From: Limnothrix sp. BL-A-16
Lineage (GTDB): Bacteria; Cyanobacteriota; Cyanobacteriia; CACIAM-69d
NCBI GenBank assembly: GCA_041937175.2
Contig: CP166615.1
Span: 1,696,001-1,760,000, forward strand
Direction: 5' to 3'
DNA: 64,000 bases
Both the position numbers and the translations under genes were made by a program. The notes under the pieces were generated by a model that was not told the origin of the DNA, searched no databases, and worked only from the letters and a program-made list of their open reading frames with translations. Below, piece after piece: positions 13,718-30,987 of this stretch (position 1 is its first letter; every line of letters starts with the position of its first letter).

Positions 13718-14373
13718 TGGTTCCTCGCTAGCAGTGATCACAGTTGAGTTTTTGTTGAGTTCTTGTTGAGTTTTGACAATCAACAGTCCAACAACGGTCA
13801 AATTTCCTGACCTGTGCAAATTGGCCAAATCGGGGCGATCACCCGTGGGTAGACCTCACCACTCCAGTGCTCGCTGGAGTGCAGATGGCCCATCACCCAC
13901 TTGTCCCGCAGGGCTGCCCGGACAGTGACCCGCACAGGCTCAACCTATGTTAGAACGCCACCCGACCGAATCGAACATTTCCCGCCCTGGCCCCTGCCTC
14001 CGATGCGAGCTTTCCCGAGACCTTTAGCTTAGGATTGATTTGGTTTTGATCCATTGGCTTTGCCTGACCCGCCAACCAACCCTGAAACCGGCCCGAGAAC
14101 AGGCTCGAAACCATGGCCCAAAACTCAAAACCATGGTCCAAAAACCAATCAGTGTCAATGCCTTCTATTTCTAAGGATCCAGCTTCAGGATCCAGCTTCG
14201 ATCCTGAAGCTGCATGGCTGTGGGCTGTTGTTTTAGGGAGGTAGACCGGGGTATACCTTGGTCATGCTGGAGCTGAGTTAGACCCTGTAGCTGAATTGAT
14301 TGCCCGTCCGTTTCGCTTCTCGCGCCCGATCGCCCGATCGATGCGCCTTCGATCCCGCTAGGTGTCACCTGCT

Positions 14374-16404: not shown

Positions 16405-16685
16405 CTTTTGGCGATCGCCCATGAATGGCGTGCAGGTGGGCAGGGCATCCAGTCTTGATACGATCGCCCACACAATTGGGCATCCTCAGGCCAAATTCAT
16501 GGCTGAACTCACGGCTAACCGTATCCCCAGTTCCGATGGTTCGCGCTGGTTTGCCCCGTTTAGACTCTTCAAACCCCGCCAGCCTTTCGGGTTCTTCAAG
16601 CGTTGTGATTGCGATCGAACCCCATTCGATCAAACCCTCATTCAACCCCTATTCGACCTAACCTCACTCGACAGGAGTAGCGACC

Positions 16686-17774
16686 ATGCCACTGGATTAC
16701 ATGATCGAAGACGTGATGGAATCGCTGATCGAACAAGGCGGCTCCGACATGCATATCCAAGCCGGTGCGCCCATCTATTTTCGGATTAGCGGCAAACTGA
16801 CCCCCCAACCGCAATTTGGCGAAGTCCTCGACTCCCAGGACTGCCAAAAGCTGATTTTCAGTATGCTCAACAACAACCAGCGGAAAGACCTGGAGCAAAA
16901 CTGGGAATTGGACTGCGCCTATGGGGTGAAGGGCCTGTCGCGGTTTCGGGTGAATGTCTATCGCGAGCGGGGCTGCTGGGCCGCCTGTTTGCGGGCCCTG
17001 GCTTCCCAAATTCCCAACTTTGAAAAACTCGGTTTGCCCCAGGTGCTGCTGGAGATGGCGGAGCGGCCCCGGGGCATGGTGCTGATCACGGGACAAACGG
17101 GATCCGGCAAAACCACCACCCTGGCCGCCTGCCTGGACTACATCAACCGCACCCGCGCGGAGCATGTCCTAACGGTGGAAGACCCGATCGAGTATGTGTT
17201 CCCGAACATGAAAAGCCTGTTCCACCAGCGGCAAAAGGGCGAAGACACCAAGAGTTTTGCCAACGCCCTAAAGGCAGCGCTGCGGGAAGACCCGGATATC
17301 ATCCTGGTGGGGGAAATGCGGGACTTGGAAACCATTTCCTTGGCCATCTCCGCCGCTGAAACCGGTCACTTGGTTTTCGGAACCCTGCACACCAACTCCG
17401 CCGCCGGGACGATCGACCGGATTTTGGACGTGTTTCCCCCCATCCAACAGCCCCAAGTCCGAGCCCAGATGGCCAACTCCCTCGTGGGGGTTTGCTCACA
17501 AAACTTGGTCAAGAAAGTTGGGGGCGGTCGCTGTGCAGCACACGAAATTATGCTGAATACCCCCGCTGTGGCGAACCTGATTCGGGAGGGCAAAACCTCG
17601 CAAATCTATTCCACCATTCAAATGGGTGGTAAGCAGGGGATGCAAACCATGGAATCTTGCCTGGCCAAGCTGTACCAAGAAAACAAGATCACCTACGAAG
17701 ATGCCCTGGGTAAAAGCTCCAAACCCGACGAGCTACAGCGGTTGCTGGGGGGCAAGGTCGGCGCTGGTCGCTAG
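16686..17774 (+). CDS. pilT: Type IV pilus retraction ATPase
   Basis: GQTGSGKTT, ALREDPDIILVGEMRD and AVANLIRE motifs. Confidence 0.95.
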   Translation: MPLDYMIEDVMESLIEQGGSDMHIQAGAPIYFRISGKLTPQPQFGEVLDSQDCQKLIFSMLNNNQRKDLEQNWELDCAYGVKGLSRFRVNVYRERGCWAACLRALASQIPNFEKLGLPQVLLEMAERPRGMVLITGQTGSGKTTTLAACLDYINRTRAEHVLTVEDPIEYVFPNMKSLFHQRQKGEDTKSFANALKAALREDPDIILVGEMRDLETISLAISAAETGHLVFGTLHTNSAAGTIDRILDVFPPIQQPQVRAQMANSLVGVCSQNLVKKVGGGRCAAHEIMLNTPAVANLIREGKTSQIYSTIQMGGKQGMQTMESCLAKLYQENKITYEDALGKSSKPDELQRLLGGKVGAGR

Positions 17775-17986
17775 GAACGCCGCATCACTGCGACATCACT
17801 AATGCGACACAACCGATCGGGTGGATAACCGATCGACCCATGGCAACGGACGGGGCGCGATCGCTCGGTAAACCCCCAGGGCGATCGCCCCCATCCCCAG
17901 CCCGATTGCCTCCCACCCCTGCCGCCACCCCTGGCCACAGACCCTCGACAGAATTCTTAGGACTCACGTAGTTTGAGCAGCGCCCT

Positions 17987-19246
17987 ATGGCTAAATTCAT
18001 CGCCACCATCGCTGGCCCCGACGGCAAAGGCAAGCGCGAAGTTGTTGAAGCAGAAAGCATCAACGGGGCGCGTAATAAACTGATTGCCGCTGGGTTTAGC
18101 CAAGCCCAAATCCGCGATCTCAAGGAACAGAAAAGCGGCCTAGACATTGACCTCGCTAGCCTCACGGCCAGCGTGACCGTAAAGGATTTGGCTGTGTTTT
18201 CTCGGCAATTTTCCGCCATGTTCAATGCGGGCATTGCCATGGTGAAATGTTTGGATATTTTGAGCAATCAATGTGAAAATCCCAAACTGAAAAAAGCCCT
18301 ATTTAAAATCAATGCTGATGTGCAAGAAGGGGAAACCCTGTCTTCTTCGCTGAAACGACACGGCGACATCTTCAGTAAGCTCTATTGCGCCATGGTGGAA
18401 GCGGGTGAAATTGGGGGGGTGCTCGATGAAGTGCTCACCCGACTGGCAACCCTGCTGGAAAATGCCGCCCGGCTACAAAACCAAATTAAGTCCGCCATGT
18501 CCTATCCCTCAACGGTGGGATCTTTGGCGGTCATTATCTTTTTGGGAATGACCATTTTCCTGCTGCCAACCTTTACGGGAATTTTCGATAAGTTGGGAGC
18601 TGAATTGCCGGCGTTCACGCAAATCATGATTAATATCAGTGAATTTTTGCGTGGCCCCACCTTCCCCGACGATGATCCCAAGGGGCGCAAGAATTTCTAT
18701 GTGGTGTTTTTGGTCATTGCTTTGGTTGCCGGCAAAGTTGTCTATGACCTGTGGTATAAAACACCGGCTGGCAAGCGCCAAATGGATGCCGTTTTTCTGA
18801 AGTTGCCGATTTTTGGAGACATCATTCAGAAAAGCTCGGTGGCTAGTTTTTGCCGCACCTTTGGAACGTTGACGCGATCGGGTGTGCCGATTATTCAAGC
18901 CCTCGAAATTTGTAAAGATACCGCCGATAACCAGGTGGTTTCGGATGCGGTGGCTTCCTCCATTACCGAAATTCAAGGTGGGGGAACAATCAGTGCGGCG
19001 ATCGAGCGATATAAAGTCTTCCCGGCCATGGCCATTCAGATGATGATGATTGGTGAGGAAACCGGGGAACTCGACAAAATGTTGATGAAGGTGGCGGACT
19101 TCTATGAAGATGAAGTGGAGCAAGCGATCAAGGGTCTAACCAGTATGTTGGAGCCGTTGATGATTGTGGTGATTGGGGGGATGGTTGGTTCGATTCTGTT
19201 GGCGATGTATTTGCCCATCTTTGCGGTAATGGATGCGATTAAGTAG
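17987..19246 (+). CDS. pilC: Type IV pilus platform protein
   Basis: FSRQFSAMFNAG, MVEAGEIGG and GEETGELDKML motifs; pilBTC order. Confidence 0.95.
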   Translation: MAKFIATIAGPDGKGKREVVEAESINGARNKLIAAGFSQAQIRDLKEQKSGLDIDLASLTASVTVKDLAVFSRQFSAMFNAGIAMVKCLDILSNQCENPKLKKALFKINADVQEGETLSSSLKRHGDIFSKLYCAMVEAGEIGGVLDEVLTRLATLLENAARLQNQIKSAMSYPSTVGSLAVIIFLGMTIFLLPTFTGIFDKLGAELPAFTQIMINISEFLRGPTFPDDDPKGRKNFYVVFLVIALVAGKVVYDLWYKTPAGKRQMDAVFLKLPIFGDIIQKSSVASFCRTFGTLTRSGVPIIQALEICKDTADNQVVSDAVASSITEIQGGGTISAAIERYKVFPAMAIQMMMIGEETGELDKMLMKVADFYEDEVEQAIKGLTSMLEPLMIVVIGGMVGSILLAMYLPIFAVMDAIK

Positions 19247-19344
19247 TGCTGCAAGGCAATGCTATTAACCATCAAAACTCCAAATACAGCCTTTACCTAA
19301 AAAAGTTGGCACACTACATCGCAAATGCCATGAGGCAATGATTC

Positions 19345-19364
19345 GGTGGGCAATGTCCATCCTA
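19345..19364 (-). repeat. Degenerate GTAG-type REP
   Basis: Minus strand TAGGATGGACATTGCCCACC resembles the copy at 46938. Confidence 0.45.
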
Positions 19365-19495
19365 ACGGGCTACTGTGCTTAGTAAGCGAGGTAAGGGCTG
19401 TATCAACCAGCAAAACCCCAAGGCAAAGCGGTCGATCATCAAAACTTCAGGCGGATTTCTTTCGGGCAAATTCTTCTAGCAGATGGTTCTTGCGA

Positions 19496-19596
19496 CTGGG
19501 TAGGTTAGAGACATGACTAATGGAGTCTGTTGAGTTGATCAATGACAAGCTAACGAAGTTAGCTTTTTTTACTTCTCAAACATTTCAAACATTCTC
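19496..19596 (-). mobile_element. Remnant left end of an IS1031-like (IS5 family) element
   Basis: 38/45 identity with 28527-28571; encodes MSLTYP; end TTTCAAACATTCTC followed by TAA. Confidence 0.65.
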
Positions 19597-19647
19597 TAAC
19601 CTTCAACCCAGCGATCTAACACCGGTTAGCTACATTGGATGCGACCA

Positions 19648-21780
19648 CTACTTAGACACAGCCCACGATCGCACCTTACCAAGAGTGACTGGCATTCGAT
19701 CACTCACATCAATCGTGAATCGAAAAATCCGCTTGGCTCGCCGTCCATTGTCAGGGTCAAAAAACTTCAATTTTACGTCCCAGCACTCGCTGCCATAGCG
19801 ACAGAATGGACTTTTCTCAACTTCAATATCTGCTAACTCCATTCCCTGGGCTACAGCCTCTGAAAAAGTCTGGACAGCTTGGAAGGCATTTGTTGTTGCA
19901 AAGTTCAGTGCCCGATCGCGCGCCAATTGTCCCAAGTTTCGCAGGTCATAGTAAACCCGATTAAGAAAACTAGTCAGTGATCGTCGCATTCGACTCTCAT
20001 CAGCAACTGCTTGATTGGCACTAACCGTCTGCAAGGCCGATTCCACCAATGAATTGACTTTCCAGCCATACATTCCACGCGGACTATTAACCTTCAAAAT
20101 TGGTACTTCCTGACCAGAAAAGAGGCGCACCGTTTCGTTGATCACAATTCCCGGTATACTGACTCGCTCGATATAGTTATCATCATCCTCCGCTAATACT
20201 TGCCCACCCAGCAAGTAGGTCAAAATCTCATAGATCTCTGCCCCAAAAGCTCCTACGGGTTGAATGGCATACACCGGAGTTAGCTCTAGATTAAGTGTCC
20301 AAATCAGTGATTTTGCTTCAAAGAGATTTTCGTCCAGATAGTCCACCATTTGACGGGCATCATAGGGATTGGCAGGAATCTGGACATTCCCTACCGTAGC
20401 GGCCGGCATAAATTGTTTAAAGGTGTCACGCCGGGCCTCAGTGCCAAAATCATATCCAATCGTCCCAAGGGTGTAAGCCAAGTTGGAGCGAGGGCTAGTG
20501 GTGGCAGCAGAAGGCGTGATCGGGGTGGCCGAAATCACATTCGTTGTTGCATTGGCTGTGGTCGCTGCGGATTGAACAGCCGCAGCGACCACTAATTGCT
20601 CCTCCGGCGAAGCGATCGCAGTTTTAGGACTAGGTTCAGAAACTACGGTTAGATGAGATTGGTTATTAACGCCTAAATAGCCTTGGTCAATACCAGTTTC
20701 CGGAGCAATAATTTCCACCCCTGAGTCATCATCCACAGGGCGATTGCTCACCTCAGCCTTCGTCTGCTGGTATTGCAACGGTGTGCCCATAATTAACTCA
20801 TAGGCTCCGGCAATGTTAATTCTGCCCAGTAAGCACCGTTCTGGCTCTTCCGTCGTTTCCGGGTCGCAGGGAATAGCACTATTGAGCAAGGCTGCCCGCA
20901 CCGCTTCTGCATCGGGAGCCAAACCCTGTTCCAATTGCAAACTCATCAGGAGGGCGGCTGTTCCTGTAATGATCGGGGCAGCACAGCTCGTACCTTTTTG
21001 GCGGATGGGGATATCGGTACCCGGTAGCGCACCAAGAACATTTTCGCCAGGGGCTAAAATGCCTTGGCTGGCGTATTTACCGCCAAAGTTACTGAACTTA
21101 AATGGTTCGCCCGTATCTTTCATCGCACCGACCGTCAGCACATGATCGAGGACGGCCGGAATACACCAACATTCACCCTTATCGTTACCGCCTGGGGCAA
21201 TGACTAAAATATTATTTTCCTGCGCTTGTTTAATAGCTTTTTCAATAAATTCGTGGGCGATACCACTTTGGGTAGGATGGCAAGCGGCACAGTGAATAAT
21301 GTTAACGTCCTGCTCGATCGCGGTGCTAATAGCTCGAGATAGATTCAAAGGATTGATGAAATCTTCCCCATTAACCGCAATAGGAATATTAATTACTGTT
21401 GCCCTAGGAGCAATACCTTCGACAGGAGAGCCGGGTTGACCGCAAATGGTGCTGATGATGTGGGCAGCATGACTCTGTAGGTGAATACTTCGGCGAATGT
21501 TTTCATCGGGGATAGCCGCTTCCATTAGCTTCCCCGATTCCTCCTCACTGAGACCTGCTGCTTTGGCATGGAGGTCAATTTCAACAAAGGCTTGAATATC
21601 AGCTGGGTCGATTTCAAATGATTCGATCCAGTAGGGATCAATTCGAGTTAGATTTCCCCCTTGAAAGCAAGCCCGATCAAGATCAACCTTCCCATCAAGC
21701 ACAGCAATTTTGATGCGCGGATCGCCAAGGGTACGCGATCGCAAGGCAGACATTCCAGAAATATCGGCTAGATTCGGCAT
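19648..21780 (-). CDS. patG: Cyanobactin macrocyclase protease (PatG type, no oxidase domain) plus C-terminal DUF
   Basis: Subtilase IAVLDG / HAAHIIS / GTSCAAP with a helical insertion before the catalytic His; PatA/G DUF (GYDFGTEARRDTFKQ...FRFTIDVSD). Confidence 0.93.
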   Translation of the reverse strand: MPNLADISGMSALRSRTLGDPRIKIAVLDGKVDLDRACFQGGNLTRIDPYWIESFEIDPADIQAFVEIDLHAKAAGLSEEESGKLMEAAIPDENIRRSIHLQSHAAHIISTICGQPGSPVEGIAPRATVINIPIAVNGEDFINPLNLSRAISTAIEQDVNIIHCAACHPTQSGIAHEFIEKAIKQAQENNILVIAPGGNDKGECWCIPAVLDHVLTVGAMKDTGEPFKFSNFGGKYASQGILAPGENVLGALPGTDIPIRQKGTSCAAPIITGTAALLMSLQLEQGLAPDAEAVRAALLNSAIPCDPETTEEPERCLLGRINIAGAYELIMGTPLQYQQTKAEVSNRPVDDDSGVEIIAPETGIDQGYLGVNNQSHLTVVSEPSPKTAIASPEEQLVVAAAVQSAATTANATTNVISATPITPSAATTSPRSNLAYTLGTIGYDFGTEARRDTFKQFMPAATVGNVQIPANPYDARQMVDYLDENLFEAKSLIWTLNLELTPVYAIQPVGAFGAEIYEILTYLLGGQVLAEDDDNYIERVSIPGIVINETVRLFSGQEVPILKVNSPRGMYGWKVNSLVESALQTVSANQAVADESRMRRSLTSFLNRVYYDLRNLGQLARDRALNFATTNAFQAVQTFSEAVAQGMELADIEVEKSPFCRYGSECWDVKLKFFDPDNGRRAKRIFRFTIDVSDRMPVTLGKVRSWAVSK

Positions 21781-21964
21781 AATTTTAAGAACTTTATGAA
21801 CAATGCATCAATTACGCACGCATCAATTGCGATTAACCCGTGGGAAGTCAATCGCATTGCTTGCTGTCCAACTGCAACTATTGGGAGTTGATCCTGAAGC
21901 TTGTGGGCTACCTGGCGGCAGTGGCTTTGATTCGACTTAGCAGCCCATGCTTAGTCGCAAATGG

Positions 21965-22180
21965 TTAGCACCAGATTCGGCCGCGCCGAAACGGTTTTTC
22001 GTTCTTTGGGCGCTGGTAGACTTGGTAAAACGTGCGCCAACGACCGTAATCCTCCAAGCCGGTTGTCAAGGGTTGTGGTTCCTTCTTGGTTTTGGGTTCT
22101 GAGGATTGATCGTTGGTTTCAGCCGACTCTGTTTCGGCCACTTGCTCGGCTGATTTTTTTGATTTTTTATCGTTTGCCAT
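21965..22180 (-). CDS. patC: Cyanobactin PatC family protein
   Basis: TTGLEDYGRW...PFRRGRIWC signature. Confidence 0.9.
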   Translation of the reverse strand: MANDKKSKKSAEQVAETESAETNDQSSEPKTKKEPQPLTTGLEDYGRWRTFYQVYQRPKNEKPFRRGRIWC

Positions 22181-22244
22181 GGTGTTGTCTCCCGAAGATC
22201 ACCGATTGCTGTGGCGAGTTTGTCGCATATCTAGACGACTTGAT

Positions 22245-22451
22245 CTAGTAAGAACGCCCTTGTCCTGACATTTTCAAGTAGCCATAGGCCGGATATTGAA
22301 ACTGAGCCGGATCGTTGTAATTAGCGCCGTGCATGATGTCCATGCGAATGCTCAACAGGTCTTCACCACCACCATGAAGGACATCCACACAGTCATGGAT
22401 GTGGACGAAATGAGGGCGTTTGACTGGGGGAGATTGTTTAGGAAGTGCCAT
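22245..22451 (-). CDS. patB: Cyanobactin PatB family protein
   Basis: LPKQSPPVKRPHFV...VDVLHG...MHGANYNDP signature. Confidence 0.9.
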   Translation of the reverse strand: MALPKQSPPVKRPHFVHIHDCVDVLHGGGEDLLSIRMDIMHGANYNDPAQFQYPAYGYLKMSGQGRSY

Positions 22452-22562
22452 CGGAGTTGCCAGAATGATTGTGATGGGACGTGGCGAGAAATGAGATGGG
22501 CAGGCATCCTCTTCACTCCTCGCCTCTAGTTCTTGATGTTTTTTGTGGCTGCGCGGTTGCCC

Positions 22563-24545
22563 TTAGTAAGGCGACGACCAGGAACGCACCTCGCCCAGGG
22601 TGACAGGAATGAGGTCGCTCACATCAATCGTAAAACGGAAGACCTTCTTGGCGCGGCGGCTGTTTTCCGGATCAAAGAACTTCAGTTGCACGTCCCAACA
22701 ATCGCTGTCCATCCGACAGAAGGGACTCTTGGACACATTGATGCTGTCCAGTTCCATCCCCGCGCCAACGGCTTCCGAGAAGGTTTGGGCGGCTTGGAAC
22801 GCATTGGTGGCAGCGAAGTTGAGAGCGCGGTCTTGGGAGGTTTGGCCCAAGTTGCGGAGATCGTAATAAATTCGATTCAGGAAGCTGCTGAGCGTGCGGC
22901 GCATTTGGCTTTCATTGCCGTCCTGTTCGGTACCCACGGCTTCTAGGGCGGTATCTACCAGGGTGTTGACGTGCCAGCCGTACATCCCACGTGGGCTTTG
23001 GGGTTCGATGACGGGGACGACTTGACCAGAGAACAGACGCACGGTGCGACCCGTAATCAGGCCGGGAATGCTGACCCGCTCAATGTAGTCTGGGCTGTCT
23101 TCAGCTTCGACCTGACCTGCCAAGAGGCCTTGGAGGACAGCATAGACTTCACGGGAGAAGGAACCCGTAGGCTCAATTGCATAAATCGGGGTCAATTCCA
23201 GGTTCAGCGTCCAAATCAGCGATTTGGTTTCTGATAGGTTTTCCCCTAGGTAATCGACCATTTGCCGCGCATCGTAGGGGTTGGCGGGAATCTGCGTTCC
23301 TTCAATGGCGTAGGGTGGCATGAGTTGTTTGAAGGTGTCGCGGCGGGCTTCGCTGCCGAAGTCGTAACCGAGAGTACCGATCGCGTAAACCATGCCATTA
23401 GCGGGTTCAGCAGCTTGGCTGGGGGTGATGGGGGCGCTGGTGGTTTCGGGCATAGGGGTTCCTGATGAAGTAATGGCGTTAACAGGGGTTTCGATCGCAC
23501 TGACCGTTACCAGGGCGGGTTGGCGCTCCTGTGGGGGAGAAACAATTTCTTCTGCTTCTTCCACGGGCGGGGAGGAACCGCCGCAACTGCAACCGGAGGC
23601 TTCTATCAGTGCGGTTTCTAAGCTTTGATCTTGGTCGTCAGACATACTGACTCCTATTAATTTTTCTCCGGTTAACTTTTGAACAGCCCCAGGAATATTC
23701 AGAACACCGACCAAACATTTGCGATCGTGTTCGGTGTCGGCAAGGGGACAAGGCAGAGCGGTTGCGAGGATGGCATCCCGCACCGCTTGGGGGTTAGGGT
23801 CGTCGCCCCGTTGCACCTGAAGGCTCAGCAGCAGGGCAGCCACACCCGAGATAATGGGAGCGGCAAAGCTAGTGCCACTGAGCCGAATGATGCCACCACC
23901 GGGACTAGCGCCGGGGATGTTCTCACCGGGGGCGAGAATGCCTTGGCTTTGGTAGGTTTCTCCCCAGTTGCTGAAATCTAGGGGATGACCTCTGGCATCC
24001 ATTGCACCAACCGCGAGGACGGCGGGTAGGGCGGCGGGGACATTCAGGCAGTCGCAACCATCGTTTCCGGCGGCGGCAACGATGAGGATGTTGCGTTCTT
24101 TGCAGGTTTGCACGGCGCGATCGAGCCAGTCTTCTGCTTCGCCAATATCGGTGAGAGCACCACCGCTGATGTTGATGATGTGCGCTCCGGCTTCGGCGGC
24201 TTGTTCTATGGCGCGGGCGAGATCCAGTTGGGAGAGTTTGCGGTTGTCGTCGGAGAAGACGGGGGCGAGGATGCCGCGACAGTGGGGGGCGAGTCCGGGA
24301 ACTTCGGTGTTGGGCTGCCCGAAAATCAGGCTGGCAATGTGGGTGCCGTGGGTGGACATGGCCCCGGTGGTGGCTTTGCCCAGGGCGAGGGTGGGGAGGC
24401 GGCTGAGGGTGGCACCAGCAAAGCAGGGATGGTCGGTATCGACAATGCCATCGAGGACGGCGACACGAATATCGGAAGAGCCTTGGGTGCGGGTTTGTAA
24501 GCTCAGAAGACCAGGAATTAATTCTTTCGCCAAACTCTGACTCAT
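22563..24545 (-). CDS. patA: Cyanobactin leader-cleaving protease (PatA type)
   Basis: VAVLDG / HGTHIAS / SGTSFAAP catalytic triad, SQLDLARAIEQA and C-terminal DUF. Confidence 0.94.
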   Translation of the reverse strand: MSQSLAKELIPGLLSLQTRTQGSSDIRVAVLDGIVDTDHPCFAGATLSRLPTLALGKATTGAMSTHGTHIASLIFGQPNTEVPGLAPHCRGILAPVFSDDNRKLSQLDLARAIEQAAEAGAHIINISGGALTDIGEAEDWLDRAVQTCKERNILIVAAAGNDGCDCLNVPAALPAVLAVGAMDARGHPLDFSNWGETYQSQGILAPGENIPGASPGGGIIRLSGTSFAAPIISGVAALLLSLQVQRGDDPNPQAVRDAILATALPCPLADTEHDRKCLVGVLNIPGAVQKLTGEKLIGVSMSDDQDQSLETALIEASGCSCGGSSPPVEEAEEIVSPPQERQPALVTVSAIETPVNAITSSGTPMPETTSAPITPSQAAEPANGMVYAIGTLGYDFGSEARRDTFKQLMPPYAIEGTQIPANPYDARQMVDYLGENLSETKSLIWTLNLELTPIYAIEPTGSFSREVYAVLQGLLAGQVEAEDSPDYIERVSIPGLITGRTVRLFSGQVVPVIEPQSPRGMYGWHVNTLVDTALEAVGTEQDGNESQMRRTLSSFLNRIYYDLRNLGQTSQDRALNFAATNAFQAAQTFSEAVGAGMELDSINVSKSPFCRMDSDCWDVQLKFFDPENSRRAKKVFRFTIDVSDLIPVTLGEVRSWSSPY

Positions 24546-24558
24546 AACTTCAGTGAGA

Positions 24559-25443
24559 TTAGGGATTTTGGCTCGTAAAAGCTTTGCTGTAATACAGATT
24601 CACGTTGTTAATTCTCCCCGCTTTCATCTCTGATTCTGAAAGGGCAACCCACATTCTTCTAGAACCCTCTTGTTGGAGATAAAAATCGTGAACTCGACGA
24701 GCCGTGTCGTTGATGGGAAAGTAGGATAAAAAATCTTCAATATTTTCTAGATGGTAGTAGAGAACATTGGCTTCATTGGCAGGACTCAAACCGATTCCAA
24801 ACAAACTGCAAAGAGGCAAGGGCTTGAGAGCTTCAGGAGACAGTATTGTTTTTAACTGGTTGTAGATGAAAGGATGATTAAATTCATCTTTTTTTAATTC
24901 AGGATAGAGTTCGATCGCACTACGACCATCTAAATAAAAGTCAAAGCCGATCTGCAAAGTATCTGATCGCAGCATGGCTTCGGACTCTGGAGTGATGTTG
25001 CAGAGGTGCTTGGCCACAGCCATTTTTTCGGGATAGTCACCAATGCGGATAAAGAGTTTGAGTTTGGATTCGCCAAGATTTTGACGCAGATCGATGCCCG
25101 CGAGGACAGTTTGAACTTTGCTGTAGTCAAAGTTGCCTGCCAAAAAGGTGGCAAGAATGTCGAGATTGAGATTGACATCGGTTCTGGATGCAGCGCGTTT
25201 TAGGAAGTCAATAGAGGTGTGAATATTGCGGGAATGTTGTTTATCGGAAAACTGAAGATCGATGCGGGCTGGGTAAAGCTGGTCTTGTTTGATTTTGCCC
25301 GAACATTCGATTAGACAGTCCCCTGTCGTGGCAACAAACTCTTCAAATAGTGCTAGGGGATAGAGCGGTTCGATATCAAAGACTTGTTTGTGGTTGCCAA
25401 TATATCTTAATTTTTCTTCTGGTGCGATCGTTGACTTAAACAC
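24559..25443 (-). CDS. patF: Cyanobactin prenyltransferase (PatF/LynF family, LimF-like)
   Basis: IECSGKI, GIDLR...SKLK, GFDFYLDGRSAIELYP and NLYY motifs; frame extends upstream to 25470 (LIKKRKGSK). Confidence 0.93.
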   Translation of the reverse strand: MFKSTIAPEEKLRYIGNHKQVFDIEPLYPLALFEEFVATTGDCLIECSGKIKQDQLYPARIDLQFSDKQHSRNIHTSIDFLKRAASRTDVNLNLDILATFLAGNFDYSKVQTVLAGIDLRQNLGESKLKLFIRIGDYPEKMAVAKHLCNITPESEAMLRSDTLQIGFDFYLDGRSAIELYPELKKDEFNHPFIYNQLKTILSPEALKPLPLCSLFGIGLSPANEANVLYYHLENIEDFLSYFPINDTARRVHDFYLQQEGSRRMWVALSESEMKAGRINNVNLYYSKAFTSQNP

Positions 25444-25497
25444 TTTGCTGCCCTTTCGTTTTTTGATGAGTCACTCATTCACAATTTGCACAAAGCG

Positions 25498-26283
25498 ATG
25501 CCCAGAAAACCGAGAATTTTCAAGCAGGGATACGCTTATCACATCACAACCCGCTGCAACAATCGGGAGTTTAAACTATCGCGGCGAGAATGTCGGGAGG
25601 TGTTTCTTTATGCCATTCGCAAGGCATTGGATAAGTTCGGGTTCAAGCTGTACGGGCTGTGCATTATGTCGAACCACGTTCATTACCTGCTGGAACCCAC
25701 TCAACCCGAGGATTTGCCGAAAATTATGCACTTCCTCAATTGGTACACGGCGATGTGTTTTAATCGGATGCTCGGAAGAACGGGGCATTTTTGGGAAAAG
25801 CGGTATTTCTGCGATGGGTTTCCGGCGACCGACCGAGACAGAACTTTAAATACCCTGCGTTACATTCACGGCAATCCAAAAGCGGCAAAAATGCGTTCTA
25901 CCTTCTTCTATGAATTCGGTAACTACGGCAGCTACGAACGCTTGACTGATGATGGATTAACCCAGTGGCATCCAGCTTTTCTGCGACTGGGCAGAAGTTT
26001 GGAGGAATGTGCCAAGAAATACAAGGGTTTTTGTCAGCGATATAAGCCGAAGTCTAAAGAGCCAAGGAAATATGCTTGGGGTAGCCGCCTGCTGGCTGAT
26101 GCTCGTTTATCCAGTCGGGGAGGTGGGGAAAAAAGCCAGGTTGAGGGTCGAGAAAGACTCAACCCCAACCGTCTGGCTGACCCCACCCGGTGCCAGGTAT
26201 CGGAATGCCCTGAAGTGACGAGGGTTGCCCGTCAATTCATTGAGGCGAACCAAGCGCCTTGGCACTCAGAAAAAGGGTTTTGA
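25498..26283 (+). CDS. RAYT-like HUH (Y1) tyrosine transposase
   Basis: MPRKPR start, YHITTRCNNR, HUH motif MSNHVHYLL, GHFWEKRY and catalytic YIHGNP; uninterrupted ORF. Confidence 0.88.
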   Translation: MPRKPRIFKQGYAYHITTRCNNREFKLSRRECREVFLYAIRKALDKFGFKLYGLCIMSNHVHYLLEPTQPEDLPKIMHFLNWYTAMCFNRMLGRTGHFWEKRYFCDGFPATDRDRTLNTLRYIHGNPKAAKMRSTFFYEFGNYGSYERLTDDGLTQWHPAFLRLGRSLEECAKKYKGFCQRYKPKSKEPRKYAWGSRLLADARLSSRGGGEKSQVEGRERLNPNRLADPTRCQVSECPEVTRVARQFIEANQAPWHSEKGF

Positions 26284-26316
26284 CCTGTTTTGAGGTGGAT
26301 GATAGAATGAGGCGTG

Positions 26317-26466
26317 TTACTCCGCATCGTCTCCCGCAAAAGGATTGTATTCATGACTACGTCCGTGGGGCGTGATCGCATTCCCATCACGAGAAACAGT
26401 CGCGGAAGTTTCGCGCTGCACGGGAGCCACGGTTTGCGGCATCAGCGCTTTCAGATCTTTCTTCAT
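26317..26466 (-). CDS. patE: Cyanobactin precursor peptide E1, core GRSHEYNP (missing from the ORF track)
   Basis: Manual translation MKKDLKALMPQTVAPVQRETSATVSRDGNAITPH-GRSHEYNP-FAGDDAE*; GAGG 8 nt upstream of ATG. Confidence 0.93.
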   Translation of the reverse strand: MKKDLKALMPQTVAPVQRETSATVSRDGNAITPHGRSHEYNPFAGDDAE

Positions 26467-26519
26467 GGTCTTTGCCTCAAGTTGAGTGAGGGGCATTGTT
26501 CCTATCAGGAACTACAGAG

Positions 26520-26549
26520 AAGCTAGCCCTCTTTATTCAGCATCGTCAA
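26520..26549 (-). promoter_or_regulatory. Putative sigma70 promoter of the precursor gene (repeated in every cassette)
   Basis: Minus strand TTGACG-N18-TAGCTT. Confidence 0.45.
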
Positions 26550-26820
26550 GACTAGGGTATAAAAGATTGCATCTACAATTTCTTTATTTTTGATGCAATC
26601 AAGCTCAGTGAAAAGAGAGCAAAAATGGTCAGGCAACTGCAGTAGAGAAATAATTCAGTTGCCTGTTTTGGAGCCTTGCGATCTAACAACCTAGTGCCAG
26701 GTATCGGAATGCCCTGAAGTGACGAGGGTTGCCCGTCAATTCATTGAGGCGAACCAAGCGCCTTGGCACTCAGAAAAAGGGTTTTGACCTGTTTTGAGGT
26801 GGATGATAGAATGAGGCGTG

Positions 26821-26976
26821 TTACTCCGCATCGTCTCCCGCAAAAGGATCCCAACTCCTAAATGAACCCGAATCGTGGGGCGTGATCGCATTCCCATCAC
26901 GAGAAACAGTCGCGGAAGTTTCGCGCTGCACGGGAGCCACGGTTTGCGGCATCAGCGCTTTCAGATCTTTCTTCAT
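26821..26976 (-). CDS. patE: Cyanobactin precursor peptide E2, core DSGSFRSWDP
   Basis: Same leader and FAGDDAE follower as E1. Confidence 0.93.
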   Translation of the reverse strand: MKKDLKALMPQTVAPVQRETSATVSRDGNAITPHDSGSFRSWDPFAGDDAE

Positions 26977-27330
26977 GGTCTTTGCCTCAAGTTGAGTGAG
27001 GGGCATTGTTCCTATCAGGAACTACAGAGAAGCTAGCCCTCTTTATTCAGCATCGTCAAGACTAGGGTATAAAAGATTGCATCTACAATTTCTTTATTTT
27101 TGATGCAATCAAGCTCAGTGAAAAGAGAGCAAAAATGGTCAGGCAACTGCAGTAGAGAAATAATTCAGTTGCCTGTTTTGGAGCCTTGCGATCTAACAAC
27201 CTAGTGCCAGGTATCGGAATGCCCTGAAGTGACGAGGATTGCCCGTCAATTCATTGAGGCGAACCAAGCGCCTTGGCACTCAGAAAAAGGGTTTTGACCT
27301 GTTTTGAGGTGGATGATAGAATGAGGCGTG

Positions 27331-27554
27331 TTACTCCGCATCGTCTCCCGCAAAAGGATTAAAAGGATTACTCATCACTTCACTTCCGTTCCGCAATTCA
27401 ACCCAACATGATCAAACCAACACAAACCACCCCCGGGGCGTGCAATCCACGCCCGGGGCGTGATCGCATTCCCATCACGAGAAACAGTCGCGGAAGTTTC
27501 GCGCTGCACGGGAGCCACGGTTTGCGGCATCAGCGCTTTCAGATCTTTCTTCAT
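27331..27554 (-). pseudogene. patE: Cyanobactin precursor E3 with an expanded, frameshifted core
   Basis: Leader frame stops at TGA 27375-27377; follower FAGDDAE is in another frame (cassette is +74 nt relative to E1). Confidence 0.8.
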
Positions 27555-27908
27555 GGTCTTTGCCTCAAGTTGAGTGAGGGGCATTGTTCCTATCAGGAAC
27601 TACAGAGAAGCTAGCCCTCTTTATTCAGCATCGTCAAGACTAGGGTATTAAAGATTGCATCTACAATTTCTTTATTTTTGATGCAATCAAGCTCAGTGAA
27701 AAGAGAGCAAAAATGGTCAGGCAACTGCAGTAGAGAAATAATTCAGTTGCCTGTTTTGGAGCCTTGCGATCTAACAACCTAGTGCCAGGTATCGGAATGC
27801 CCTGAAGTGACGAGGGTTGCCCGTCAATTCATTGAGGCGAACCAAGCGCCTTGGCACTCAGAAAAAGGGTTTTGACCTGTTTTGAGGTGGATGATAGAAT
27901 GAGGCGTG

Positions 27909-28064
27909 TTACTCCGCATCGTCTCCCGCAAAAGGATTACTATGAGTAGGATGTAGTAGTCCGTGGGGCGTGATCGCATTCCCATCACGAGAAACAGTCG
28001 CGGAAGTTTCGCGCTGCACGGGAGCCACGGTTTGCGGCATCAGCGCTTTCAGATCTTTCTTCAT
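27909..28064 (-). CDS. patE: Cyanobactin precursor peptide E4, core GLLHPTHSNP
   Basis: Same leader and FAGDDAE follower as E1. Confidence 0.93.
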   Translation of the reverse strand: MKKDLKALMPQTVAPVQRETSATVSRDGNAITPHGLLHPTHSNPFAGDDAE

Positions 28065-28403
28065 GGTCTTTGCCTCAAGTTGAGTGAGGGGCATTGTTCC
28101 TATCAGGAACTACAGAGAAGCTAGCCCTCTTTATTCAGCATCGTCAAGACTAGGGTATAAAAGATTGCATCTACAATTTCTTTATTTTTGATGCAATCAA
28201 GCTCAGTGAAAAGAGAGCAAAAATGGTCAGGCAACTGCAGTAGAGAAATAATTCAGTTGCCTGTTTTGGAGCCTTGCGATCTAACAACCTAGTGCCAGGT
28301 ATCGGAATGCCCTGAAGTGACGAGGGTTGCCCGTCAATTCATTGAGGCGAACCAAGCGCCTTGGCACTCAGAAAAAGGGTTTTGACCTGTTTTGAGGTGG
28401 ATG

Positions 28404-28642
28404 GTAAAGTGCCATCGTCACCAAACGGCGAAGTAGTGATACACCGCTATGCGGGGTCGTCCACCTGCCTTGATGTGACGGGCAACAGGGCTTCCCGGAG
28501 TTGCCATTGGTCATCAGTTAAATCACCTGGGTAGGATAGAGACACGGCTAACGGGGTCTATTGAGTCGATCTGTTGATCTAGTGACAAAATCTAATGACA
28601 ACCGGCTGATATCGTTAGCTTTTTTGCGTTTCAGATATTCCC
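28404..28642 (-). pseudogene. Internally deleted IS1031-like (IS5 family) transposase remnant with left end
   Basis: Fragments SYPGDLTDDQWQLREALLP, AGGRPR and VYHYFAVW/DDGT in shifting frames; end CGTTTCAGATATTCCC followed by TCA. Confidence 0.75.
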
Positions 28643-28695
28643 TCAGGCAAACTTTTCCAGCGATCGAGTGAGCAGTAGCATCAGCGAGGCAGCCT

Positions 28696-29439
28696 ATGTC
28701 CATAAAGTCTGCGGACTATGAGGAAATTCTGGCGACTTATAGTGGGCGGCAGGCGGCGATCGAGCTGCTGCGGGAATATCGGCCCTACTTGGAACTGTTG
28801 CCCAGTATGCGGCGGCCCCTGGACAGCACCGTGGTGATTACGTTGCCGTTGGCGCGGATCGATCCCGACGTGTTGGAAATGACCCAACTGGCCGAGGTGG
28901 CCGATGTGAGCCGATCGCGCCGTCGCCATCCGATCGAGTCCGAGCGATCGACCAACAAGCCGGGCCGACAGGCGGTGCGGTTGCCCTGCGAGATTGCCCT
29001 CCTGATGTGCGATCCCGAGTGGCAGGTAACCACGGGCGTGGCGGTGTTTGTGTTTGTGCATCGGCCCAACGAGGATTTTTATGGGCTGATGAGTCGCTGG
29101 CGACAGACGCAATTGCTGCTCGATCGGGATTATGAATGGGTGATGCCCCTGGCTTACCGCCATGTGGTGGGCGATCGGGCCGATCGGATCTATCCGCTGT
29201 TTTTGCTGTCGGAGCGATCGCCCGAACGATTGCAACGGGGCTTGAAGGGCGCAACCTTACCCTATGTGGTTTGTCCAACCCAGGCGGAACCCCCCGCCCG
29301 ATTCGATCTTCAGGCCGACCATACCCCCGCTCCCACCACCGATCTGACCCGCGAAACGCCCCATCCGGGCCCGGGGCGATCGGCCCGCGATGCCCAACCC
29401 ACCTCTGATCCAGAGCTGGAAGGCGATCTTTGGGTTTAG
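28696..29439 (+). CDS. Hypothetical protein
   Basis: 247-aa ORF, HIP1-rich like host genes; function not recognised. Confidence 0.7.
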   Translation: MSIKSADYEEILATYSGRQAAIELLREYRPYLELLPSMRRPLDSTVVITLPLARIDPDVLEMTQLAEVADVSRSRRRHPIESERSTNKPGRQAVRLPCEIALLMCDPEWQVTTGVAVFVFVHRPNEDFYGLMSRWRQTQLLLDRDYEWVMPLAYRHVVGDRADRIYPLFLLSERSPERLQRGLKGATLPYVVCPTQAEPPARFDLQADHTPAPTTDLTRETPHPGPGRSARDAQPTSDPELEGDLWV

Positions 29440-29643: not shown

Positions 29644-30987
29644 ATGGACTTGCTGGAGTATCAGGCAAAAGCCCTGTTTGCCGCCATGGGCATTCCGGTG
29701 CTGCCTTCCCAACCAATCGCCAGCTTGCAGGAATTGCGGGAATTGAAGATTCCCTACCCGATCGCCCTGAAATCCCAAGTGCGGGCCGGGGGGCGGGGGC
29801 GTGCTGGTGGGATTCGGTTCGCCAGCAACACGATCGACGCGGTGGCCGCCGCCCAAGCCATTTTCAGCTTGCCGATCGGGGGGGAATGTCCTGCGTTGCT
29901 GTTGGCGGAGGCCAAATACAACGTGGAGCAGGAGTTTTATCTGGCGGTGGCGCTGGATGACAACGCCCGGCGGCCGGTGCTGCTGGGATCCACCCAAGGG
30001 GGGATGGATGGCAAGCTTTCCGCCGGTACGGTGCATCAGGTGTTGGTGGATGGGGAATTTTCGCCCTTCTATGCCCGCCGTTTGGTGCTGAAGATGGGGC
30101 TGCGGGGCGACTTAGTGCCTTCCGTCAGCGAGATTGTGGAGCGGATGTATGCCCTGTTTGTCCAAAATGATTTGGATTTGGTGGAGATTAATCCCCTAGG
30201 GGTCGATCGCGCCGGGGGACTGATGGCCCTGGACGGCAAAGTCACCGTGAACGACAGTGCGATCGATCGCCACACGGAGTTGAAATGCTTGCTCAACGGC
30301 GTAGTGATGCCGCCCAGCCTCAAGCCCGTTTGGATTGAGGGCGGAACCGCGCCCACTCCGGCGGCCAATGCGGCCCATGGTGCTCAGGGGGCCGTGAACG
30401 GTCAGGGCAGCAATTCCACCAATGGCGATCGCAGCAAAAAGAACGCCAGCGCCTCGATCGGGATTGTTTGCAATGGCATGGGGCTAACCCTAGCGGCCTT
30501 GGATCTGGTTTGTCGCTTTGGGGGCAACGTGGCCGGGTTCATCAATGTGGGCTGGACCGTGGGCGGTGGCCGCCCCGAAACCCTAGAAGAGCGCCTCGAA
30601 CAGGCCTTAGCTAGCCTCAGCAGTCCGCACCCCATGCGGGTGGTGCTGCTGGATCTGTTGGGCAGTGCCATCACCCTGGATGGCGTTTTGGCAGTCATTC
30701 ACCAGTATGCCAAGCGCCATGGTTGGTGGCGACAGGAAACCCAACCGATGGAGGAACTACCACAACCCCTCACAACCACCCGCAGTGAAGGGGACTTGGC
30801 TGTGAATAGTTTGGCTAATAATTTGGCCCTGAATAAGGGACGGGGCCCCGCGATCGTGCTGCGGGTGTTGGGAGAACCCAGTGATGAAACGCGCGAGTTA
30901 ATTGAAAGCTTGCCGATTTCCCTAGCTGACAGCCTCGAAGCCGCCGCAAAACTGACGGCCGTTTTAGCCAGTGCTCCTCAGGCTTAG
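29644..30987 (+). CDS. sucC: Succinyl-CoA ligase beta subunit-like ATP-grasp protein
   Basis: MDLLEYQAK, KSQVRAGGRGRAGG, EINPL and ALDGKV motifs. Confidence 0.85.
   Translation: MDLLEYQAKALFAAMGIPVLPSQPIASLQELRELKIPYPIALKSQVRAGGRGRAGGIRFASNTIDAVAAAQAIFSLPIGGECPALLLAEAKYNVEQEFYLAVALDDNARRPVLLGSTQGGMDGKLSAGTVHQVLVDGEFSPFYARRLVLKMGLRGDLVPSVSEIVERMYALFVQNDLDLVEINPLGVDRAGGLMALDGKVTVNDSAIDRHTELKCLLNGVVMPPSLKPVWIEGGTAPTPAANAAHGAQGAVNGQGSNSTNGDRSKKNASASIGIVCNGMGLTLAALDLVCRFGGNVAGFINVGWTVGGGRPETLEERLEQALASLSSPHPMRVVLLDLLGSAITLDGVLAVIHQYAKRHGWWRQETQPMEELPQPLTTTRSEGDLAVNSLANNLALNKGRGPAIVLRVLGEPSDETRELIESLPISLADSLEAAAKLTAVLASAPQA

Follow-up and report, generated by a model that had tools for sequence, protein, structure and literature searches.

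The 64,000-nucleotide (nt) stretch of the Limnothrix sp. BL-A-16 genome analyzed here (contig CP166615.1, positions 1,696,001 to 1,760,000; hereafter the window) contains a cyanobactin cluster in which a transposase-like gene of the Y1/HUH kind stands directly beside a tandem array of precursor cassettes, each carrying a copy of the 3' end of that gene. The gene is not a stray insertion sequence (IS) but a resident of the cyanobactin clusters of many genera and, judged from its codons, its intact copies are under purifying selection. Our preferred reading, to which we give a little less than an even chance, is that the transposase-like gene forms with its 3' module a long-resident, selected unit that acts on the adjoining DNA by way of recombination at a conserved DNA motif. 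The nature of the locus itself is close to certain. It is an anacyclamide/piricyclamide-type cyanobactin cluster in which the precursor is present as four tandem cassettes and a partial fifth unit; each repeat extends from a conserved 14-nt motif to the precursor upstream region, and the blocks of about 480 nt have been recently homogenized. The features of the gene and the array are these:

25498-26283, plus strand: intact Y1/HUH transposase-like gene, 261 amino acids (aa) (Pfam Y1_Tnp over residues 11-124, E 2.5e-17, 63.6 bits)
26190-28403, no strand assigned: tandem array of four full cassettes and a trailing partial unit (28287-28403)
26190-26203, plus strand: conserved 14-nt DNA motif GTGCCAGGTATCGG, left edge of the repeat unit, with further copies starting at 26694, 27204, 27782 and 28292
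26280-26308, plus strand: promoter-like site TTGACC-17-TAGAAT adjoining the transposase stop codon (10 of 12 matches in the scan, TG before the -10 box)
26317-26466, minus strand: precursor E1, 49 aa from its MKK start (TIGR04446 70.4 bits, cut-off 35; Pfam DUF5840)
26341-26364, minus strand: core 1, GRSHEYNP, with limits inferred from the boundary between constant and variable sequence
26821-26976, minus strand: precursor E2, core DSGSFRSWDP at 26845-26874 (TIGR04446 69.2 bits, cut-off 35)
27375-27554, minus strand: precursor E3, degenerate (TIGR04446 matches only profile positions 4-32 of 51)
27909-28064, minus strand: precursor E4, core GLLHPTHSNP at 27933-27962 (TIGR04446 69.5 bits, cut-off 35)
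26565-26600 and 26630-26665, no strand assigned: two inter-cassette hairpins, present in every unit (inverted repeats I1-I12)

The array comprises 4.2 tandem units across 26190-28403, with start-to-start spacings of 504, 510, 578 and 510 nt. It lies directly 3' of the plus-strand open reading frame (ORF) at 25498-26283, and its first unit starts inside that ORF, at 26190. Each unit is made up of the last 94 nt of the transposase-like ORF followed by 33 nt to the stop codon of an antisense precursor, then the precursor ORF, then about 190 nt of precursor upstream region with the two hairpins. Taken as ORFs, the precursors extend over 26317-26496 (E1), 26821-27006 (E2), 27375-27584 (E3) and 27909-28094 (E4), all on the minus strand. 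A preliminary description of this DNA had reported an intact Y1/HUH gene and then four head-to-tail cassettes with the last ~94 nt of the gene, and both the ORF list and the repeat comparison agree with that layout. The 300-nt copies at 26367, 26877, 27455 and 27965 are all 100% identical, and the 162-nt copies at 26185, 26689, 27199, 27777 and 28287 are 98-100% identical, the fifth being partial (78% over the full length, the array ending at 28403). Constant block 1 has 0 differences from block 4 over 441 nt and 1 difference from block 2 over 480 nt, and only two single nucleotide polymorphisms (SNPs) were found in the array, at 27238 and 27649, which bears out the earlier count of two SNPs in some 480 constant base pairs. 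Both fall in unit 3, that of the degenerate cassette. Cores 1, 2 and 4, of 24, 30 and 30 nt, cannot be aligned with one another, and the unlikeness in sequence and length recorded earlier for 26341-26364, 26845-26874 and 27933-27962 held on re-reading. Such a repeat structure is far beyond chance. A blastn search of the 4.56-Mb genome with the unit detected no second copy of the unit, hairpins included, and no second copy of the cores. The hairpin at 26630-26665 is followed by TTTT on the plus strand and that at 26565-26600 by TTTTAT on the minus strand; a terminator scan with a loop limit of 8 nt called neither.

E1, E2 and E4 are full family precursors with a conserved leader and a C-terminal FAGDDAE, and E3 has the leader part only. 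The E3 leader is intact, its ORF ends in ...GTEVK without the FAGDDAE tail, and a stop lies upstream in the frame that encodes FAGDDAE. Segment 27361-27454 of this cassette is an inverted and partly tandem duplication of the last codons of the leader, and a hairpin at 27429-27460 (stem of about 12 bp, -15.2 kcal/mol as DNA) stands exactly at the leader/core boundary. Cassette 3 is, from these features, probably dead. The ~94-bp core that the preliminary description ascribed to it is therefore a real segment but one of a degenerate cassette, not another core variant. Insertion of a miniature inverted-repeat transposable element (MITE) was considered for cassette 3 and rejected, because the 94-nt segment has no other copy in the genome and resembles a duplication of the end of the leader; its palindrome has no family in the window. 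A MITE insertion in a pirE gene is on record in the accessible text of a published account. One element of the earlier layout stays putative: a promoter had been placed upstream of each precursor, and a consensus scan of 25300-26800 gave no minus-strand promoter-like site there.

The transposase-like protein has the hallmarks of a Y1 enzyme. Across 20 homologues, H60, H62, Y122 and N126-P127 (the YIHxNP motif) do not vary. Conservation extends to the C-terminal tail that the repeated 94 nt encode, and so the repeat holds the true 3' end of the gene and not a read-through. The AlphaFold model is confident over residues 1-120 only; Foldseek matched the predicted N-terminal fold to the TnpA proteins of IS608, ISDra2 and IS200 (E 1e-5 to 2e-4) and also to the Escherichia coli transposase associated with repetitive extragenic palindromes (REP), and a sequence search returned no solved relatives. 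The protein thus shares with IS200/IS605 TnpA the HUH motif, the catalytic tyrosine within YIHxNP and the TnpA fold, and it shares with domesticated REP-associated tyrosine transposases (RAYTs) its single-copy state, having no paralogue in the genome. In the accessible part of the published Y1 classification, subclass 2.1 resembles it in the NHVH and WE motifs and in a length that includes a C-terminal extension. Neither family assignment was adopted. An IS200/IS605 insertion sequence is disfavored by the single copy, by the lack of subterminal hairpins or a conserved left end, and by a score of 22.1 bits against the NCBIfam IS200 model, below its cut-off of 55. A RAYT with REP or REPIN partners is disfavored by the confinement of motif and unit hairpins to the array and by a score of 56.1 bits against the NCBIfam RAYT model NF047646, below its cut-off of 80. 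Where genomes carry several copies of the gene, the likeness between them is confined to the stretch from about -9 to the stop codon or else takes in the neighboring gene.

Homologues were collected as the 79 best loci, one genome per species, a set selected by the gene itself (loci and genomes are cited by L and G numbers). Cyanobactin genes lie within 10 kb in 29 of these loci, and reading of the ORFs adds L016, making 30 of 79. Most of the cluster-linked loci share one order, with the PatF prenyltransferase gene and the precursor both on the strand opposite to the intervening gene (PatF<- tnp-> <-E), and heterocyclase-type precursors adjoin the gene in L010, L014 and L019 by ORF reading. 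In a tree of 69 rows, from which 11 loci with in-frame stops were left out (L010, L013, L015, L023, L025, L030, L042, L045, L047, L063 and L066), all 21 cyanobactin-labeled rows fall in one clade of 29 (SH-aLRT 99), with 0 of 40 outside it; L016, with its adjoining precursor, belongs to the same clade and raises the linked rows to 22 of 29. Of the 401 genomes in an even, unselected sample of the phylum, 18 have PatF and 37 have the gene (E up to 1e-40); in 9 of the 18 with PatF, the PatF contig also carries the gene or what remains of it, no more than about 6 kb away. The co-localization with precursor genes anticipated in the preliminary description is therefore found in many genera, and so is its other expectation, that precursor units elsewhere should include the 3' end of the gene. 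Locus self-comparison revealed detached gene 3' ends beside extra precursors in Microcoleus, Dolichospermum, Nostoc, Microcystis, Arthrospira, Argonema and others. These detached copies hold from 16 to 762 nt of the gene, with a cluster at 94-109 nt, and their left edges precede the motif by 0 nt (window and G002), by about 16-21 nt or by at least 40 nt. The detached 3' pieces of Nostocales meet the preceding cassette at a GCGATCGC (HIP1) site that lies about 16-21 nt ahead of the motif, a junction common to several genera (L007 11330-11357; L013 6630-6654 and 7120-7142; L093 9910-9938).

Selection on the gene is indicated by a median ratio of nonsynonymous to synonymous substitution (dN/dS) of 0.098, taken over the 41 pairs with dS below 2 among the 120 pairs that 16 intact genes allow. 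Among the 30 cluster-linked copies, 15 are intact, 7 keep the catalytic core with a tail that is lost or shifted or with a contig end, and 8 have premature stops.

The 3' end of the gene contains more than protein-coding information. The segment GTGCCAGGTA, which starts exactly at the unit edge of the window, shows little or no variation across 21 lineages, even at synonymous positions, and the longer GTGCCAGGTATCGG occurs five times in the genome, always in the array. It is read as C-Q-V in the cyanobactin clade of the gene and as V-P-G-I at the end of the ORF, or after the stop codon, in a sister clade. Kept in different frames, it is a DNA element and not a protein motif. The promoter-like site next to the stop codon, present in every unit, points antisense into the precursor and is a candidate only; subclades differ in the spacer between its -35 and -10 boxes but retain the boxes themselves, whether the copy is attached or detached. 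In both kinds of copy conservation is lowest at codon position 3 (0.72 detached vs 0.70 attached), and with this common profile the detached copies appear to track the coding copy. Five breakpoints at or in the motif were seen by eye: the unit edge of the window, the right end of a gene deletion in G002, a duplicated motif in the G002 trailing copy, a tandem duplication from GGTATCGG in L104 and a 6-nt loss in L103. Small hairpins that follow the motif in the cyanobactin clade are, by eye, inconsistent.

The history of the array can be read from a sister species of the same genus (G002), whose cluster occupies the same place in the chromosome, between flanks of 94-97% identity. There the transposase-like gene has suffered an internal deletion that leaves its first codons and a 3' piece, the right breakpoint lying inside the motif, and the array copies are only 79-82% alike, versus 0-1 differences per ~480 nt between the blocks of the window, where the gene is intact. 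The five tail copies of the window are 99-100% alike among themselves, 81-82% alike with their positional counterparts in G002 and 91-96% alike with the G002 middle copy; the unique flank is 95.3% alike between the two species. Since likeness within the array exceeds positional likeness between species, the window lineage must have homogenized and expanded its array after the split. The trailing window copy was homogenized too, although its positional counterpart in G002 is only 81% alike. The locus is a tandem gene array under concerted evolution, and it has undergone amplification and homogenization in the lineage of the window. The left side of the array has also changed. PatF of the window and of G002 have 42% protein identity and the neighboring protease has 96%, which indicates that the segment from the start of the protease gene to the motif (window 24497-26190; L088 10337-11500) was replaced in one lineage. 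The interior of the G002 gene (L088 11324-11500) is occupied by a substitute of about 150 nt with a CCCCCCTTGAAAAAGGGGGG hairpin that looks like a small mobile element. G186, an independent lineage, keeps only the first 20 codons and a 3' piece of the gene (L093 9660-9940).

Natural populations were sampled through contigs of four public metagenome and metatranscriptome runs placed on the region. One metagenome contig (X1) matches 26365-26904 with 0 differences and holds core 2 in its flanks, and another (X6) matches 27755-28294 with 1 difference and holds core 4 in its flanks. Further cores stand on the same flanks with 0-1 differences, HVSGDFSP in X3 and one that starts TYGGKSVNVE... in X1 (window 26266-26904). 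Cores absent from this genome on such flanks mean that related strains hold different sets of cassettes. The X3 contig also carries a 21-nt tandem duplication at window position 25443, between the PatF start and the transposase-like gene, along with 7 SNPs in some 800 nt of the gene region. In an RNA library, a contig over E4 (X7, 27877-28317) has a depth of 78.7 versus 3.5-7.3 for pieces of the transposase-like gene, values that are strandless and open to DNA carry-over and so establish neither sense nor antisense transcription.

The sister clade of the gene, 60-64% identical, lies outside cyanobactin clusters and adjoins a gene of a different kind. In 23 of the 79 loci (L043, L048, L050, L053, L055-L057, L059, L061-L067, L069, L070, L072 and L075-L079), a convergent gene ends 0-500 nt after the homologue and has a GUN4-like C-terminal domain; further cases are L089 (7152-8521) and L099-L103, and G002 itself has such a homologue/GUN4 gene pair. 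The N-terminal domains of these GUN4 genes vary: TIR, caspase, NACHT, kinase, DUF4062 or trypsin-like. Among five copies in G098 and G388, likeness is 96-100% through the gene and the 115 nt that follow, falls to 22-31% for about 90 columns and returns to 86-99% through the GUN4 domain, and close sister-clade orthologues have the same dip in identity. In 13 of 22 close pairs (5 groups), identity collapses at +120 to +180 from the motif and recovers beyond; core 1 of the window lies at +147 to +170 from the motif. After the hypervariable GUN4 tail comes a short constant end, for which the copies use two different reading frames. By eye, a -10-like TACAAT or TACACT is present in the sister clade about 27 nt before the variable segment.

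From these observations a mechanism can be proposed, conditional at each step. The module of about 120-150 nt at the 3' end of the gene, with its motif and promoter-like boxes, would form a unit with the gene, and the protein would bind or nick single-stranded DNA at or near GTGCCAGGTATCGG. With a copy of the site in every cassette, nicks could provoke recombination between cassettes, and the outcomes would be unequal exchange, which changes copy number, gene conversion, which keeps the flanks identical, and replacement of a segment starting about 120-180 nt to the right of the site. The source of new core sequence lies outside the proposal, and no enzyme that writes cores is claimed. A bolder extension, which is tentative and in our view rather unlikely, makes the cyanobacterial family of domesticated Y1/HUH proteins and their cis module (GTGCCAGGTATCGG and an outward promoter) a targeted diversification system that renews a segment 120-180 nt away, near the 3' end of a convergent gene; one clade would serve cyanobactin cores and another the C-terminal tails of GUN4 proteins with TIR, caspase, NACHT and kinase fusions. 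The preliminary description had gone as far as a domesticated nuclease that amplifies cassettes and/or rewrites cores. The association of the clade with the clusters, the presence of the gene's 3' end in the units, the purifying selection and the like layout of the sister clade beside another hypervariable segment speak for part of that idea, whereas core rewriting by the enzyme has no direct support.

Several observations weigh against the proposed unit. The gene is dispensable for keeping an array, because arrays persist where it is absent or decayed: G002 has two cassettes with unlike cores, and a trailing copy, despite its deletion, G186 has three precursors and gene remnants only, and 8 of the 30 cluster-linked copies are pseudogenes beside surviving arrays, with tail loss or a contig end in 7 more. 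This goes part of the way towards the equally diverse arrays without the gene that the preliminary description had named as telling against it. No pattern between intactness of the gene and cassette number or similarity was seen by eye in the 30 loci. To our knowledge, the pat cluster has no such transposase gene. In the unselected sample, the gene is wholly missing from 5 of the 18 PatF genomes, and in 4 more only pieces of it are present, on contigs other than that of PatF. Cassette edges that fall anywhere from 16 to 762 nt into the gene disfavor excision at one fixed site, and the five motif breakpoints were found by eye and have no null model. No conserved sequence precedes the start codon at 20 clade-i and 11 sister-clade loci that could be an IS left end, and the gene has no terminal hairpins of the IS200/IS605 kind. 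A search of Rfam (E up to 1) returned nothing for window positions 25300-28700 and only a sub-threshold PsrR1 match for L050, and RNAalifold, applied to the plus strand of 14 sister-clade modules, gave 4 pairs without covariation and thus no conserved RNA structure. The close sister-clade pairs form only 5 independent groups, few and related, and some of the variable GUN4 tails are low-complexity C/A-rich tracts that could vary by slippage. In the accessible text on the pat pathway, hypervariable cores on constant flanks are reported as well.

It is possible, although on balance somewhat improbable, that the gene is only a passive neighbor. An IS200-like gene would have entered an ancestral cluster between PatF and the precursor and been co-inherited, general homologous recombination would expand, contract and homogenize the array with the heterologous 24-30-nt cores stopping conversion tracts, and diversifying selection with exchange of cassettes between strains would keep the cores different. 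The geometry favors such an account: with ~33 nt between the convergent stop codons, any duplication that keeps a whole precursor reaches the 3' end of the transposase-like gene. The scatter of breakpoints fits as well, as does L006, which has a second, near-full copy of the gene at 84% identity, and so do the arrays that outlast deletion or decay of the gene. The codon-position pattern of the detached copies (0.72 vs 0.70) agrees with recent copying or conversion from the coding copy, ordinary gene conversion suffices for the overwritten trailing copy of the window lineage, and the metagenome contigs with other cores on the same flanks point to a population pool of cassettes. Multiple precursors, 1 to 12 copies of pagE and a transposase in the pag, art and sph clusters are, moreover, already described in the accessible parts of the literature. 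A dead passenger, however, should not hold a dN/dS near 0.1 as a single syntenic copy when synonymous sites are saturated between genera. Passive inheritance also leaves unaccounted for a 10-nt motif that resists synonymous change and recurs in the sister clade under another reading frame, and the fact that this sister clade adjoins a different gene whose hypervariable segment is equally far from the motif.

The remaining explanations seem to us less probable. The 3' end of the gene may be a regulatory module, a promoter for RNA antisense to the precursor and perhaps, in its motif, a regulator site, possibly for the Y1 protein, in which case cassettes would keep it for its control of precursor expression and the nuclease chemistry would have no part in cassette turnover; we think this unlikely. 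It would explain the TG-extended 10/12 promoter-like site, the boxes kept across different spacers in attached and detached copies, their persistence in the shortest detached pieces (16-74 nt of gene), the -10-like sequences of the sister clade and the high depth of the RNA-library contig over E4. Such contigs are strandless and may derive from DNA in the RNA library, and therefore do not establish antisense RNA; a purely regulatory role has no need of invariant HUH and tyrosine residues and does not account for the motif breakpoints or for a hypervariable downstream segment in two unrelated genes. That the array is an assembly artefact, a mis-assembled collapse or expansion of fewer cassettes, is very improbable indeed. 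No contig spans more than one core with both full flanks, and the order and number of cassettes are thus not independently confirmed, but the genome is in 2 contigs with 100% completeness, cores 2 and 4 are joined to constant flanks in independent metagenome contigs (X1 and X6), and the sister species shows this architecture at the matching chromosomal position.

The remainder of the cluster is encoded on the minus strand to the left of the transposase-like gene, and a transposase fragment adjoins the array on the right:

19648-21780, minus strand: PatA/PatG-family protease (Pfam Peptidase_S8, PatG_D, PatG_C; TIGR03895 841.7 bits, cut-off 421)
21965-22180, minus strand: PatC-like small protein, 71 aa (TIGR04447 46.5 bits, cut-off 30)
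22245-22451, minus strand: PatB-like small protein, 68 aa (TIGR04220 115.3 bits, cut-off 55)
22563-24545, minus strand: second PatA/PatG-family protease, 660 aa (Pfam S8, PatG_D, PatG_C; TIGR03895 912.3 bits, cut-off 421)
24559-25443, minus strand: PatF/LynF/TruF-family prenyltransferase, 294 aa (Pfam DUF5838 6.3e-89; TIGR04445 307.4 bits, cut-off 140)
28447-28545, minus strand: N-terminal fragment of another transposase ORF (from the ORF list), 44 nt to the right of the array edge at 28403

Read along the minus strand, the order is E4 to E1, PatF, a PatA/G protease, PatB, PatC and a second PatA/G protease. No YcaO-type heterocyclase is encoded among the 13 ORFs scanned within 10309-30987, a scan that was not extended to the genome. 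The G+C content at 18000-28500 is mostly 0.41-0.53, but 0.56-0.63 in the protease gene at 22500-24500, and that of the surrounding DNA is 0.55-0.68. The transposase fragment at 28447-28545 may belong to the IS5 family, as its LTDDQW motif suggests. Its junction with the array is identical in the sister species, in a flank of 95% identity, and the truncation of this ORF therefore predates the split. Farther out are type IV pilus or type II secretion genes on the left (14362-19246; two T2SSE ATPases and one T2SSF protein) and an ATP-grasp gene on the right (29644-30987), ordinary chromosomal genes that are syntenic in the sister species.

We know of no mechanism, since their first description, by which the cores of cyanobactins, and in general those of peptides made on the ribosome and modified after translation (RiPPs), come to diverge wholly on identical flanks. 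The locus offers a handle on that problem, with one conserved enzyme gene, one 14-nt site per cassette and natural lineages in which the gene is intact, decayed or deleted for comparison. Should the enzyme prove to drive the turnover of cassettes, it would represent a new cellular use of HUH nucleases and a natural tool for peptide libraries in vivo. Should it not, a role has still to be found for a conserved, selected transposase homologue within a biosynthetic cluster, and the conserved antisense promoter-like site would then hint at control of precursor supply. The GUN4 parallel suggests that the same module works outside natural-product clusters.

The gene set seen here (two PatA/G proteases, PatB, PatC, PatF and FAGDDAE precursors) is that of the pag cluster of Planktothrix, art of Arthrospira, pir of Microcystis, sph of Sphaerospermopsis and acy of Anabaena. 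In the accessible parts of the published accounts, known prenylated, heterocycle-free clusters likewise have several precursor genes that differ mainly in the core, a transposase is noted between E and F in the art and sph clusters, and the pag cluster has a single-copy "ISpagF" of 702-816 bp and 1 to 12 copies of pagE. Those accounts of pag, art and sph treat the transposase, in the same accessible text, as an incidental ORF or IS, neither as one family nor as functional, whereas it emerges here as one cross-genus clade under purifying selection. The present array differs further in that each cassette is accompanied by the gene's 3' end together with a DNA motif and promoter-like boxes, with flanks identical but for 2 SNPs. 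The excerpts of the literature that join cyanobactin with IS200 hold no discussion of the role of the transposase gene of these clusters, and the word cyanobactin is absent among the matches listed for IS200, HUH, Y1 or RAYT tyrosine transposases. No link of RAYTs to one specific convergent gene is described in the accessible text on that family, in contrast to the window clade, which has one, and accounts of GUN4 with caspase, TIR or NACHT domains do not, in their accessible parts, mention a transposase neighbor.

Two known systems of hypervariation invite comparison. The Prochloron patE genes have, according to the accessible text, near-identical flanks and unrelated cores among strains, and the same holds here among paralogues and metagenome contigs. 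The Prochloron case differs in that the variants are alleles between strains, that the pathway is of the heterocyclase type and that the cores lie inside one gene, and the accessible text gives no mechanism. If the more tentative diversification system were real, it would be a DNA-based counterpart of the diversity-generating retroelements (DGRs) and an enzyme behind hypervariable RiPP cores. No reverse transcriptase is present among the same 13 ORFs, a scan that included no dedicated search for DGRs or template repeats. Cyanobacterial DGRs are alike in that hypervariation is directed at a site near the 3' end of a gene that has a dedicated enzyme gene next to it, and their targets, in the accessible parts of published work, also include multidomain kinase, caspase and TIR proteins. 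They differ in that DGRs make adenine-specific substitutions, whereas the variable segments described here differ in length and are wholly replaced.

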